DNA of 61,881 nt from Acidobacteriota bacterium (GCA_003222275.1 QHVJ01000077.1:1-61881); one strand, 5' to 3'; counted from the first letter of the stretch, positions 3,602 through 31,665 are shown. Program-made: numbers and translations. Notes: generated from the letters alone by a model not told the origin.

Positions 3602-3744
3602 GCTGCGAGCGAAGCGGGATTCATTCCCCCCGGGCCGCGTAGCGGACCCGCTGGATGAGCGGCGGCGAATTCATTTCGGCGCCGCGGAAGAAGCGAGCGG
3701 GGGGTCAGGGGGGCGCGCCGCTAGCGCCCCCCTGCTCGATGATG
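3602..3744. repeat. Palindromic repeat family copy (composite)
   Basis: GCTGCGAGCGAAGCGGGATTCATTCCC...GAAGCGAGCGGGGGGTCAGGGGGGCGCGCCGCTAGCGCCCCCTGCTC, clearly homologous to the units at 30625-30930. Confidence 0.85.
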
Positions 3745-13726: not shown

Positions 13727-14017
13727 GTGGACCGACAGCACGCTCTGAGGAGCAGAGAAGAACTCGAGGACGATGAGGTCGAGGACGCCGTGGACGACGA
13801 AGCCGGCCTCGCCGCCGACGACGAGGACGAGAAGGACGAGGACGAGGACGACGAAGAAGAGGACGACGAGGACGACGACGTGGAAGACGACGATGACGAC
13901 GACGACGATGATGACGACGACGAGGACGATGAGGACGAGGACGAGGACGAGGAGGACGACGACATCGACGACGAGGACGACGATGAGGAGGAGGAGGAGG
14001 AGGAAGAGGAGTCATGA
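13727..14017 (+). CDS. Small, extremely acidic (poly-Asp/Glu) protein, 96 aa
   Basis: AAAGGAGG RBS then GTG; GAC/GAG/GAT/GAA codons held in one frame; stop overlaps the lipA ATG. Confidence 0.7.
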
Positions 14018-16989: not shown

Positions 16990-18261
16990 ATGCGGGACGT
17001 CGTCGTGGCCGGCGCCGTGCGGACACCGATCGGACGGTTCGGTGGCGCGCTCTCGACCCTCAGTCCCGCCCAGCTCGGGGCCGCCGCGGCCCGGGAAGCG
17101 CTGCGCCGCGCCGGCGTCGCCCCCGCCCAGGTGGACGACGTGCTCTTCGGCTGCGCTCGCCAGGCGGGGGCCGGGCCCAACGTCGCGAGGCAGGTGGCGT
17201 GGCGCGCAGGCGTCCCCCCGGAGATCCCGGCGGCCACCCTCAACATGGCCTGCGCCAGCAGCCTGAAGGCGATCGACCTCGCCTTTCGCGCCGTGCGCGA
17301 CGGAGATGCGCAGGTGGTGCTGGCCGGCGGGGTGGAGTCGATGAGCCGCGTGCCCTACCTGCTGACCGGGGCGCGATGGGGTTATCGCATGGGGGACCAG
17401 CCGCTCGTCGACGCGATGTACCAGGACGGCTTCCTCTGCCCGCTTTCCGAGATGATGATGGGGGAGACGGCCGAGCGGCTGGCCGAGCAGTATCACGTCG
17501 GCCGCGAGGAGCAGGACGCGTTCGCCCTGCGCAGCCAGCAGCGGGCGGCCCGCGCGCAAGTTCAAGGACGCTTCGACGCCGAGATCGTCCCGGTTCATGT
17601 ACCGCGCGTTCCGCAGCGAAGGCTTTCCTCTGACGCCGAGCGAGGATTCACTCCGCGCGAGGCGCTTGGATTGAAGATGGGGCCGGAGCGAGGACGCGCA
17701 TCTGATGAAGACGACGTGAGCCGAGACGAGCATCTGCGGCCGGAGACGACGGCGGCCACGCTCGCGAAGCTGCCCCCCGTGTTCAAGACGGAAGGGGGGA
17801 CCGTCACGGCGGGCAACTCGTCCGGGATCACGGACGGAGCCGCGGCGATGGTGGTGATGTCGGCCGAGCGGGCCGCCGAGCTGGGCGTGAAGCCCATGGC
17901 CACGGTGGTGGGTCTGGCTTCGGCGGGAGTCGACCCGCGCGTGATGGGCATCGGGGTGGTGCCCGCGGTGCGCCGCCTGCTCGAGAAATGCTCCCTGCGG
18001 CTCCAGGACTTCGACCTCGTGGAGCTGAACGAAGCGTTCGCCGCGCAGGTCATCGCCTGCGACCGCGAGCTGCGCCTCGATCCCGAGCGCCTCAACGTCA
18101 ACGGGGGAGCCATCGCGCTCGGCCATCCCATCGGCGCCACCGGCGCCCGCCTGGTCGTGAGCCTGCTGCACGAGATGGCGCGGCGCCGGGTGGGGCGCGG
18201 ACTGGCGACGCTCTGCGTGAGCGGCGGCATGGGCATGGCGGCGGCGTTCGAGGCGGTCTGA
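16990..18261 (+). CDS. Acetyl-CoA acyltransferase (thiolase) with an internal insertion of roughly 30-38 aa
   Basis: [42 protein letters not shown]. Confidence 0.93.
17594..17709. repeat. Palindromic element inserted in frame in the thiolase
   Basis: Ends TTCAT..GCGCGTTC / GGACGCGC..ATGAA, central GGATTCACTCC hairpin, TTTCCTCT shared with the 31518 element; atypical codons. Confidence 0.7.
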
Positions 18262-18272
18262 GGGAGGGGGAA

Positions 18273-19094
18273 ATGGCCGACGACGCGGAGAACACGCAGG
18301 ACCTCGACACCTACGCCCCGCGCCCCAGCACGGCGCGATTCCTGCAGGTCGCCGGGGGCAAGGGAGTCGCGCGCATCACGTTGAACCGGCCGCCCGCCAA
18401 CGTGCTGTCGATCGACCTCATGGACGAGCTCAACGCCGCGCTCGAGTCCCTGGACAACCAGCGCGACGTGAAGCTCGTGGTGCTGGCCGCGACGGGCAAG
18501 TACTTCTCCGCCGGCTTCGAGCTGGGCGACCACCTCGGGGACCGCGCCTACCTGATGATGGAAGCGTTCAAGAAGCTCTTCGACAACCTGGGCAAGCTCG
18601 ACCGCCTCGTCGTCGCCGTGGTCGCCGGGCCCGCGCTCGGCGCGGGCAGCATCCTGGCCGCCGGGTGCGACATGGTCCTGGCCGGCGCCAGCGCGAAGTT
18701 CGGACACCCCGAGATCAAGGGCGGCGTGTTCAACCCGATGGCCGCCGCGCTCCTGCCCCGGCTCGTCGGGCGAAAGCGCGCCTTCGAGTTGATCCTCGGA
18801 GGCGTCACGATCACGGCCGCGGAGGCCGAGCGTATCGGCCTCATCAGCCGCGCCGTCCCCGACGAGAAGCTCGAGGCCGAGGCGGCCGCCCTCGTCCAGC
18901 GTTACCAGGACGGCAGCGCCCCGATCCTGCAGCTCACGCGGCGCGCGATCGCCACCGGCCTGGACCAGCCGCTGGCCGATGCGATCCGCAATGCCGAGGA
19001 CATCTACCTCAACCAGCTCATGTCCACCGAGGACGCCGAGGAAGGCCTGAAGGCGATCATGGAGAAGCGCAAGCCGGTCTGGAAGGACCGCTGA
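18273..19094 (+). CDS. Enoyl-CoA hydratase/isomerase family protein
   Basis: [38 protein letters not shown]; RBS GGAGGGG. Confidence 0.9.
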
Positions 19095-19369
19095 TGGCGC
19101 GCTGGCGCTCGGACGGCTGGGTGCAGGTGGCGGAGACGGGCCAGCCCTACGAAGGAGAGCTGATCGCATTGCGCCTCCGGGCCGCGGGAATCGAGGCGAA
19201 GGTGGTGGACCAGACCTTCCGGCAGGAGCCGCTGCCGAGCGTGCGCTCGTTCGCGGTCGTGCGCGTGCTGGTCCCGGACGGCGAGGAGGAGCGCGCGCGC
19301 GAGGCCCTGGCCCGGCCGGCCGATCTTCCCGCGGAGGCCAGCGATGTCCCCGAGGCCGACGAGGAATAG
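19094..19369 (+). CDS. Small DUF2007-like (putative signal-transducing) protein
   Basis: [14 protein letters not shown]...VRVLVP...ERARE pattern; TGATG overlap. Confidence 0.65.
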
Positions 19370-19371
19370 CC

Positions 19372-20574
19372 ATGATCTCATTCGACCTGTCCGAGGAGCA
19401 CCGCGCGGTCGAGCAGACCGTCCGCGACTGGGCGGGCCGCGAGGTGGCCCCGAAGATCCACGACCTCGACCGTGAGCACCGCTTCGAGCGGGGCTTCCTC
19501 AAGGGCATGGCCGACCTGCACCTGCTCGGCATCTGCATCCCCGAGGAGTGGGGCGGGGCGGGGATGGACTACCTGAGCCTCGGGGTGGTGTGCGAGGAGC
19601 TCGAGTACGTGGACACCCATCTGCGCGTGATCATGTCCGTGCACGTCGGCCTCAACTGCATGACCGTGTGGTGCTGGGGCAGCGACGACCAGAAGAAGAA
19701 GTACCTGGCCCCCCAGGCGCGGGGGGAGAAGATCGCCACCTACGGGCTCACCGAGCCCAACGCGGGGAGCGATGCGGTCGGCATCCAGTCGACCGCCGTG
19801 CGCAAGGGCGACCGCTACGTTCTCAACGGCGAGAAGGTGTGGATCAGCCTCGCCGACGTCGCCGACCACTTCATCGTCTTCGCGTGGACCGACCAGGAGA
19901 AGAAGAAGAACCGGGACCACAAGGGGCTCAGCGCCTTCATCGTGGAGCGGGCGTTCAAGGGCTTCAGCTCGTACACGATCAAGGAGAAGTGGGGCATCCT
20001 GGCCGGCAACACGGGCGGGTTCTCCATGGACAACATGGAGGTGCCGGCGGAGAACCGGCTCGGGCAGGAAGGCGAGGGGTTCGGGATCGCCATGTTCGCG
20101 CTCGAGAACGGCCGCTACACGGTGGCCTCGGGCGCCACCGGACTCATCCGCGCGTGCCTGGACGCGTCCGTCAAGTACGCCCGGGAGCGCAAGACGTTCG
20201 GCAAGGCCATCGGCGAGCACCAGCTCGTGAAGGAGATGATCGCCGAGATGGTCTCGGACTACGACGCGGCCCGCCTGCTCTGGCTGCGGGCAGGCTGGCT
20301 CAAGAACGAGGGCCGCCGCAACACGCGCGAGACGTCGCTCGCGAAGTGGTTCGCCACCGTGAAGAGCGAGCGGGCCGCCTCCGACTGCGTGCAGATCCAC
20401 GGCGGGAACGGGTACTCCGACGAGTACCCGGCCGGCCGCTTCTACCGCAACTCCAAGGCCGCCGTCATCTACGAAGGGACCCGCGAGATCCACAAGGTCA
20501 TGCAGGCGGACTACGCCCTGGGCTTCCGGCAGGACAAGCCACGCCGGGTCGAGCTGCCCCCCTACAAGCGGTGA
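19372..20574 (+). CDS. Acyl-CoA dehydrogenase (glutaryl-/butyryl-CoA DH-like)
   Basis: [35 protein letters not shown]. Confidence 0.92.
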
Positions 20575-30238: not shown

Positions 30239-30601
30239 GTGAGCGCCTTCTCCGACACGCTCAAGCAGGTGGCCGCCCGCGTACCCGAGACGCAGCTCCT
30301 CATCGTGATGGGTACGGACGGCATTCCGATCGAGAAGCTCGTGGTCCGCCCGGCCGCGAACCTGGAAGCGGTGGCCGCCGAGTTCACGTCTCTGCTCAAG
30401 TCGGGAGTGGCCGTGGCCGCGGACACCGGGCTCGGCCAGCTGAAAGAGCTGTCCGTCGTCACCGAGAAGATGATCGCCCTTCTCGTTGCGATCACGCCGG
30501 AGTACTTCCTGTTCGCCGGGCTCGCGCCGGGGGCGCTCATGGGGAGGGCGCGCTTCGCGCTGCGCGTGGCCGGCATCGCGCTCGAGCGCGAGTTTGTCTA
30601 G
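30239..30601 (+). CDS. Roadblock/LC7 domain protein (MglB/MglC-like)
   Basis: VMGTDGIPIE, GRARFALR; 120 aa. Confidence 0.8.
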   Translation: MSAFSDTLKQVAARVPETQLLIVMGTDGIPIEKLVVRPAANLEAVAAEFTSLLKSGVAVAADTGLGQLKELSVVTEKMIALLVAITPEYFLFAGLAPGALMGRARFALRVAGIALEREFV

Positions 30602-30613
30602 GAGAGGAAACAG

Positions 30614-30930
30614 AGCCAAGGCTGCGAGCGGAGCGGGATTGACTCCCGCGAAGCGAGCGGGGGGTTTGGGGGGTGCGCCGCTAGCACCCCCCAGCTCAAT
30701 GACGAGCGGAGCGGGATTGACTCCCGCGAAGCGAGCGGGGGGTTTGGGGGGTGCGCCGCTAGCACCCCCAGCTCAATGACGAGCGGAGCGGGATTGACTC
30801 CCGCGAAGCGAGCGGGGGGTTTGGGGGGTGCGCCGCTAGGATCCCCCAGCTCAATGACGAGCGGAGCGGAATTCACTTCCGCGCAGCGAGCGGGGGTTCA
30901 AGGGGGCGCGCCGCTAGCGCCCCCTTGCTC
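30614..30930. repeat. Tandem array of four ~78-bp double-hairpin units
   Basis: Units start at 30625, 30703, 30780 and 30858 after an AGCCAAGGCTG lead-in; units 1-3 near identical, unit 4 divergent with compensatory changes. Confidence 0.95.
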
Positions 30931-31518: not shown

Positions 31519-31665
31519 TCAACGCGATGCCCCAGCGCGGGTGCTCCGCCAGTGTTCGGCCGCCGAAGCCGGAGCGTTTCCTCTACGGCGCGCGCCGGAT
31601 TGATTCTGGCGCGCGCGCATTGATGACGCCCCGCGCGCAGACGAAGGCGGCCGCATCCAGTTGAT
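31518..31665. mobile_element. MITE-like 148-bp palindromic element
   Basis: Terminal IRs ATCAACGCGATGC / GCATCCAGTTGAT (11/13); central hairpin GCGCGCGCCGG-ATTGATT-CTGGCGCGCGC. Confidence 0.6.

Follow-up and report, generated by a model that had tools for sequence, protein, structure and literature searches.

A dispersed palindromic repeat carried in frame by a thiolase gene of an Acidobacteriota bacterium

Rickettsia palindromic elements (RPE) are palindromic repeats of ~100-150 bp found in frame in unrelated housekeeping genes, and the inserts they give rise to have been judged compatible with the fold of the host protein (PMC10969869). Repetitive extragenic palindromes (REPs) inside genes have been described in several species (PMC3733652), and fusions of transposable elements of the miniature inverted-repeat type (MITEs) with open reading frames (ORFs) have been reviewed (PMC10969869). 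The DNA analyzed here, a stretch of 61,881 nucleotides from an Acidobacteriota bacterium (GCA_003222275.1, QHVJ01000077.1:1-61881; hereafter the window), contains a thiolase gene carrying a comparable element, a 33-codon copy of a dispersed palindromic repeat. A preliminary description of the window had recognized a translated palindromic element inside this gene and had likened it to the Rickettsia elements. In-frame insertion of the latter is indeed a known route, and, as the REP and MITE accounts indicate, its literature is not confined to Rickettsia. A search at the level of abstracts found no account of such repeats in Acidobacteria.

The course of events favored here, with a probability of about 85%, is that a repeat copy entered the gene and was tolerated as a passenger, the reading frame remaining open, and that it is now a polymorphism spread by recombination and eroding in at least one allele.

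The thiolase gene and its extra loop

The ORF hosting the insert (16990..18261, + strand) encodes 423 amino acids (aa) and was classified as acetyl-CoA C-acetyltransferase-like from the ORF list, Pfam matches, solved relatives and the ratio of nonsynonymous to synonymous substitution (dN/dS). The Thiolase_N (E 3e-87, 292.6 bits) and Thiolase_C (E 4e-44, 149.8 bits) domains scored above the respective Pfam cut-offs of 26.4 and 27, and the nearest solved relatives are acetyl-CoA acetyltransferases (E 8e-122). Solved thiolases align on both sides of the insert and leave residues ~205-234 unmatched. The long peptide that had been noticed after the conserved EIVPV block is present in this ORF, where it is followed by the conserved VSRDEH.

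The thiolase protein was searched against the genomes of 41 relatives; 29 orthologue loci were returned and 25 of them were aligned, leaving out two in which a contig ends inside the gene, one that is N-terminally partial, and L059. A short loop with an xKKG-type tip (consensus VPGKKGE) occurs in all 25 (24 full-length and one frameshifted), so that no homologous long loop runs through the clade, and the net gain of 30 codons agrees with the gap of ~30-38 aa that had been expected. The genome of the same genus, G001, reads EIVPLRVPGKKGEDIVNRDEH at this position. In the genomes of 33 relatives the orthologue matches come in two pieces, residues ~1-205 and 239-422, with just 3-5 codons between them, and a 55-aa query covering the loop matched, at E <= 1e-8, only the window's own genome (G000) among 59 genomes of the taxonomic family. 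Since orthologues lack the loop and its DNA is homologous to extragenic repeat copies, the loop is not ancestral; it is an insertion, in which a palindromic repeat dispersed through the genome has been copied in frame. The close thiolase homologues are labelled Vicinamibacteria by their sources.

As translated, the repeat copy occupies 17605..17703 (+), that is, codons 206-238 or 33 residues, delimited by DNA and protein alignments with orthologues and with alleles devoid of the insert (plain alleles); in the family alignment the thiolase copy spans 17602-17703. The residue that follows the terminal ERGRAS is G in three database proteins discussed below (P0003, P0004, and P0010) and matches the last G of the ancestral xKKG, instead of which G000 has D at residue 239 (GAT, 17704-17706). 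Residue 239 thus corresponds to that G, and therefore the three tip codons xKK (9 nt) were swapped for 33 codons (99 nt), a net gain of 90 nt.

The inverted ends were found as first described (TTCAT and ATGAA) by direct reading and in minimum free energy folds. The left end (17594..17609, +) comprises TTCAT at 17594-17598 and GCGCGT at 17604-17609, which pair, respectively, with ATGAA at 17705-17709 and ACGCGC at 17694-17699 of the right end (17694..17709, +). The outer stem, of which GCGCGT makes up the 5' half, has columns that covary across the repeat family, and it forms a pair that resembles terminal inverted repeats. Enclosed by it are an inner hairpin (17634..17668, +), recognized from the fold, compensatory changes and motif counts, with the family loop GGATTCACTCC at 17644-17654, and a variable spacer (17669..17682, +), defined by the family alignment and the variant map and translated as G L K M G. 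The spacer has two bases more than most copies, and it is here that most amino-acid differences among insert-bearing alleles fall. The atypical codon usage remarked upon earlier is reflected in a GC content at third codon positions (GC3) of 0.59 over the 34 codons 17605-17706 (insert plus codon 239), versus 0.91 in the rest of the gene. The insert peptide has seven arginines and one lysine versus five acidic (D/E) residues.

Two other interpretations of this segment were considered and rejected. The first is an intein, an intron or a translational bypass; the insert has 33 residues, beginning with R and ending with S, its frame is open without a stop codon, and a contig from an RNA library keeps the element. 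The second is an internal start at ATG 17705-17707, located 3' of the GGAG...AGGA of the element, which is out of frame and meets a stop after four codons.

An AlphaFold2 model based on a 25-row alignment (predicted template modelling score 0.85) gives residues 210-237 a predicted local distance difference test score below 50 and places them between strands 202-205 and 240-243; from this low-confidence stretch between two strands, the insert appears to bulge out of a beta-hairpin tip. A review of ACAT1 describes a cationic loop (V232-D253, tip K243) that points at the 3'-phosphate of the coenzyme A (CoA) of the opposing dimer, with a conserved D-E motif just after it (PMC6790690), and because the hairpin bearing the insert precedes this motif it was identified as the cationic loop. 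In two accounts the loop is described as protruding (PMC6790690, PMC3406046), and one of them presents it as exposed to solvent, noting that a thiolase-like protein has a much shorter one (PMC3406046). The surface-loop position that had been proposed for the insert is consistent with both the model and these descriptions. In one orthologue from a 3-contig genome (L044, G013:C3), two frames meet just past the cationic loop, by either a frameshift or a sequencing error; this sequence was removed for the 24-orthologue alignment used in folding.

The columns of C88, N347, H379, and C409, taken, as in the Zoogloea thiolase, to be the catalytic Cys/Asn/His/Cys, are invariant in the alignment of 25 sequences, in accordance with the earlier remark that the catalytic motifs are intact. 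Compared with G001, dS is 0.63 and dN 0.070, with an omega of 0.11 over 393 codons. The reading frame is intact; the insert is probably translated and the enzyme would be expected to keep its activity, judging from the sequence.

The insert recurs in assemblies made independently of this one and in one RNA-library contig. Among contigs from other public soil runs, Logan contig X3 record 12 covers 17519-17909 with both junctions and no differences, and X8 record 17 covers 17416-17956 with both junctions and two differences; X9 contributes a record of equal size and may represent the same data. RNA-library contig X19 record 3 spans 17485-17715 with no differences, thereby taking in the left junction and all of the element, and hints moderately that the element is retained in the transcript. 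No contig joint skips exactly the insert, a result that is uninformative on insert-free alleles in those samples because contigs drop rare variants; the joints that were listed have short sides (<=33 letters) and resemble thiolases of other organisms, and stretches left uncovered carry no weight.

The repeat family and its other copies

The window's genome is a 94% complete bin of 6.76 Mb in 628 contigs. In it GGATTCACTCC, which had been proposed as a family hairpin, has 151 exact occurrences versus ~2 expected by base composition; in the window, at <=1 mismatch, it occurs 6 times versus 1.08 in shuffles, and none of 100 shuffles reached 6. A blastn search of the insert against the genome produced many partial and ~20 long matches, the best one in contig C393 (80% over 95 nt, E 3e-17), and iterated nhmmer searches yielded 56 copies of a ~103-nt unit, with the thiolase copy scoring E 2.5e-12 against a profile partly built on that copy itself. 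Ten copies, including that of the thiolase, constitute subfamily A, which lies in sense orientation between co-directional genes with its 3' end, GGAGCGAGGACGCC, separated by a few bases from the ATG that follows; subfamily B comprises ~45 copies of the ~103-nt repeat. The insert belongs to this ~103-nt dispersed, hairpin-forming, REP/MITE-like repeat family.

The RNAalifold consensus of 53 aligned copies has 20 pairs arranged in three nested helices, and for 17 of these pairs there are copies in which both sides have changed with the pair kept. It is this covariation within the family that supports the structure, and not the RNA fold of the single insert sequence, which is no more stable than shuffles (z -0.41). 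With a covariance model made from the same alignment, 26 of the 59 genomes in the taxonomic family were seen to have the repeat, with 59 copies in G000, at least 68 in G001, 61 in G024, and 24 in G065; in genus g5 none of the 17 genomes had any. A hairpin pattern of 19 specified bases was found mainly in Vicinamibacteria and other metagenome-assembled genomes of Acidobacteriota, with several matches in records of Thermoanaerobaculia, Kofleriaceae, and Phycisphaerae. Eight repeat-bearing loci compared with Rfam at E <= 1 matched no family. Genomic copies are overall 72-82% identical to the thiolase copy, and the closest extragenic ones in G000, G001, G004, G024, and G065 are just 80-82% identical, hence no recent donor has been sampled. 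The longest repeat flanking the copies was no longer than in random controls, save for copies of a tandem array (contig C396) and for a 71-nt duplication in contig C511.

The C511 locus (C511:663-912, L318) has a copy at 742-840 flanked on both sides by the 71-nt direct duplication, which corresponds to the 3' end of a gene for a 2-oxoacid dehydrogenase E2 acyltransferase, stop codon region included. The order is the intact end of the E2 gene, the element, and a second copy of the last ~24 codons, and no other repeat copy is like it. At C396:632-937, three to four subfamily-A units are arranged head to tail with a 102-nt period. A second copy of the ~103-nt family lies within the window at 31554..31656 (+; nhmmer E 3e-8), in an intergenic position, separated by 35 nt from the preceding called gene and by 4 nt from the following one. 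Also in the window, a two-hairpin repeat starts right after a TAG stop and forms three tandem units with a 78-nt period (30600-30860), each unit consisting of a GGATTGACTCC hairpin and a G-run hairpin, and single hairpin copies occur at 3617 and 10465.

All counts of gene context rest on our own crude, GC3-based gene calls. In 20 of 45 subfamily-B copies the 3' end lies -1 to +6 nt from an antisense gene's stop codon. Ten copies are inside a called ORF, most of them near the ORF end (probably owing to over-extended starts) or in ORFs that look spurious; the apparent mid-gene copies at C483 and C83 were discarded for these same reasons. Two intragenic copies were left after inspection, that of the thiolase, in mid-gene, and one in C171 that lies in the C-terminal tail of a fucosidase. 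The thiolase copy is thus the only one of 56 in the middle of a credible ORF. At C171:7731-7845 (L317), the repeat provides the last ~35 residues of an alpha-L-fucosidase ORF, after the Fucosidase_C domain, and the stop lies just beyond the element. Since the modal copy length of 103 nt is not a multiple of three and a mean of 3.3 of the 6 frames per copy are stop-free, an intragenic survivor needs some luck, although not much.

The in-frame route of insertion recurs in this genome. Of the 151 exact sites of the hairpin GGATTCACTCC, 30 are separated by over 150 nt from either end of a called ORF. Ten ORFs with such deep-internal sites were put through Pfam, and in six of them a domain match crosses the repeat, being 18-61 residues longer than the profile span. 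The domains belong to a UvrD-like helicase, RlmN (radical SAM domain), UvrC, a peptidase M2, a PALP (TrpB-like) enzyme, and an agmatine deiminase. A MazG protein also has a repeat, but outside its best-scoring stretch, and the other three ORFs are ambiguous or gene junctions. The inserts of RlmN and agmatine deiminase (~23 residues each) are missing from G001, and that of RlmN also from G024 and G004. In all, at least six further conserved genes have in-frame repeats bearing the same hairpin; these repeats, that of MazG included, are located on contigs C75, C251, C475, C471, C614, C204, and C293 (L320-L327).

Insert-bearing alleles and alternative explanations

Residues 196-250 were searched against a collection of 5.8 billion proteins, and eight proteins with the same insert were found: two (P0001 and P0002) come from the window itself or are nearly identical to its protein, and P0003-P0008, compared as proteins, are distinct. 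All eight share the left junction (P/A)|RVPQRR. A scan of metagenome contigs for DNA of insert-bearing relatives gave 80 ordinary thiolases, all without the insert, and a full-length protein search returned many plain alleles of 393 aa. Outside the loop, identity to the G000 protein is 97.1% for the plain allele P0011 and 95-96% for the plain alleles P0012-P0023; among insert-bearing alleles it is 92.3% for P0004, 90.0% for P0005, and 86-88% for P0006-P0008. The distribution of the insert among alleles is therefore patchy.

A tree of 39 rows was built with the loop columns removed, from 7 insert rows, G001, G004, and 30 homologues out of 120 listed (P0010-P0035, P0040, P0042, P0045, and P0107), P0001 and P0002 being left out as near-copies. 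The approximately unbiased (AU) test rejected the grouping of the 7 insert rows plus P0010, which carries a remnant of the insert, in a single clade (log-likelihood difference 87.5, p 2.7e-5); an earlier and sparser tree, restricted to species representatives, had not rejected a single insert clade (p-AU 0.41) and is superseded by the denser one. The patchy distribution together with the rejected clade indicates that the insert is a recombining presence/absence polymorphism and not a fixed innovation. The earlier idea that a peptide was created de novo in another lineage thus stands as regards the in-frame repeat route; it does not as regards a fixed new lineage feature, since the insert is polymorphic and in one allele shows decay.

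The loop is permissive and plastic across alleles, as judged from the aligned proteins. In P0010 (397 aa) ERGRAS alone remains as a deletion scar, 26 of the 33 residues having been deleted; P0024, P0025, and P0028 (385 aa) are without 8 residues of the cationic hairpin tip; and P0107, of 413 aa and with 79% identity, bears in the same loop another insert, repeat-like and 20 residues long, whose motifs GGGSGGRD and EPNSLRR resemble, by eye, translated two-hairpin repeats in other G000 genes.

In the favored course of events, a copy of a non-coding ~103-nt hairpin repeat would have been inserted into the thiolase gene, with 99 nt replacing 9 nt, and the gene stayed open because the frame used has no stop codon. 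The mRNA would keep the element, and the predicted product is a thiolase of normal fold, from whose exposed beta-hairpin tip a flexible segment of ~33 residues, rich in arginine, projects. The insert would be a tolerated passenger that survives selection and not a needed part, and the presence/absence polymorphism would have moved among related alleles by homologous recombination, with the insert eroding in at least one allele.

Several results weigh against this. The searches brought to light neither a transposase nor a target duplication nor a donor copy. The RNA evidence consists of one contig, whose library belongs to a study from which the present DNA may itself derive, and DNA can also occur in RNA libraries. 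According to the ACAT1 review (PMC6790690) the cationic tip would aid CoA capture, and swapping out KK could lower activity. A thiolase paralogue is present (C597, 53-63% identity). Finally, the insert matches the enzyme core in its degree of conservation, which fits constraint as well as recent spread by recombination.

This last point also speaks for an unlikely alternative, by which the insert has been co-opted and is kept by selection, either as a longer cationic loop (acting in CoA capture or oligomer contacts) or for an mRNA or DNA structure. Identical insert residues go from 33/33 to 32/33, 29/33, and 28/33 as the rest of the protein drops from 98% to 86% identity, and a neutral simulation at the synonymous-site distance (p 0.425) left ~10 of 33 identical, none of 20,000 runs reaching 28. 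Moreover, the RVPQRRLSS and PERGRAS ends are invariant in all 7 variants beside varying native residues, and the low GC3 that the insert still has, the covarying helices of the family, and the charge of the peptide are all compatible with co-option. Against it, plain alleles whose identity to G000 reaches 97% when the loop is disregarded argue that the insert is not needed, and one allele has lost 26 of its 33 residues. The tree conflict allows the insert segment to be younger than its backgrounds, which would explain its conservation without selection, and an insert younger than its present backgrounds is the simpler reading. Of ~10 inferred substitutions, 2 are at paired sites, which make up 40% of sites, and the paired-versus-unpaired test was not significant.

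A quite unlikely extension of the same idea holds that the ~103-nt element as such is a functional structured module under selection, that the thiolase copy is kept for that function or as a cationic loop, and that homing-like gene conversion spreads it. If this were true, the element would be a recombination-borne 'protein loop cassette', exchanging 33 codons for three tip codons in a central metabolic enzyme.

Patchiness might also arise from repeated site-specific insertion into the same codons in different lineages, although this is very unlikely. Native residues after the insert follow the plain relatives of each allele, for example RASG-EEEMRR beside TKKG-EEEMRR, and P0107 has a different repeat in the same loop, as repeated insertion would lead one to expect. 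However, all insert-bearing alleles have the same left junction, 33-residue length, and spacer form, and the G000 spacer holds two bases found in only one other of 53 aligned genomic copies. Independent copies should differ more, given that genomic copies are just 72-82% identical to that of the thiolase. The features common to all alleles point to a single origin followed by homologous recombination or by a long-lived presence/absence polymorphism, and recombination rather than repeated insertion probably explains the patchiness.

That the insertion inactivated or crippled the thiolase, leaving a young pseudogene or a weak enzyme backed by paralogues, has a very small likelihood. The missing KK of the cationic tip, the paralogue, and the low modelling confidence of the insert region speak for it. 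On the other hand, the frame is open in eight sequences (counting the two that are, or nearly match, that of the window) which diverge elsewhere by up to 14%, the columns taken as catalytic are invariant, omega is 0.11, the RNA-library contig covers the region, and relatives tolerate even the loss of the hairpin tip, as in the 385-aa forms. An assembly artefact, by which the repeat was put into the gene erroneously when a metagenome bin was assembled, draws on the fragmentation of the genome into 628 contigs and has a practically negligible probability, as both junctions are crossed, with 0-2 differences, by contigs from other studies' runs and 7 further database proteins have the insert.

The thiolase gene heads a beta-oxidation-like cluster, given here as context only, with co-directional genes downstream (18273..20574, +; own gene calls and Pfam) for an enoyl-CoA hydratase (18273-19094), a DUF2007 protein (19094-19369), and an acyl-CoA dehydrogenase (19372-20574). 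Elsewhere in the window, at 13727-14017 (+), a 96-codon ORF directly upstream of the next called gene has its last ~70 residues almost purely of Asp/Glu, with a GC content of 0.12 at codon position 2.

Comparison with known repeat systems

The thiolase insert does not reveal a new mechanism, but it provides a well-documented case, outside obligate intracellular bacteria, of an intergenic hairpin repeat made part of a conserved enzyme. Its stages are found side by side in natural populations, as plain alleles, the full insert, a scar left by its partial deletion, a loop that has lost its tip, and another insert, unrelated to the first, in the same loop. The case is more informative than most because gain, spread, and decay at a single permissive loop can be followed in this series of alleles. 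Segments derived from repeats are common enough in good ORFs of GC-rich soil Acidobacteria (Vicinamibacteria-like) to affect annotation, alignment, and phylogeny.

Among bacterial MITEs, ERIC, BOX, and the Coxiella element QMITE1 are small non-autonomous repeats able to fuse in frame with host ORFs (PMC10969869), a property that the present element shares. It has no parent insertion sequence identified and, C396 and C511 excepted, no target-site duplication beyond controls, in which it departs from MITEs.

The likeness to the REP, BIME, and REPIN elements is broader. These are extragenic palindromes between co-directional or convergent genes that often touch stop codons; they are sometimes wholly inside ORFs, and their G-T pairs suggest transcription (PMC3733652). 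The ~103-nt family is likewise present in many copies, mostly extragenic and 3' of ORFs, without target duplication and with a patchy copy number among relatives. Differences are that the unit is ~103 nt long and has three nested helices, versus a palindrome of 20-40 nt or a simple inverted doublet, and that GTAG, which like CGTC serves as the tag of certain REP families, occurs at the stem-flanking place in 7 of 53 copies, the rest having GCAG, GAAG, or GGAG. The Y1 transposase (PF01797) that accompanies REPINs in the REPIN-RAYT system gave no match in the window's genome, whose 94% completeness means that this absence is not proof, and matched 6 of 14 control genomes.

In behavior, although not in membership, the closest parallel is with the RPE, which also insert in frame into genes at surface positions, and here too several conserved enzymes of one genome carry in-frame copies. 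In contrast to the Rickettsia hosts, the present one is a free-living soil acidobacterium of 70% GC, and 1 of 56 copies is in mid-gene versus nearly half in three RPE families. Strong covariation of the helices and a preference for positions flush with stop codons further distinguish the element described here. Rickettsia and other bacteria had already furnished events of this kind, to which the thiolase insert adds one more example.

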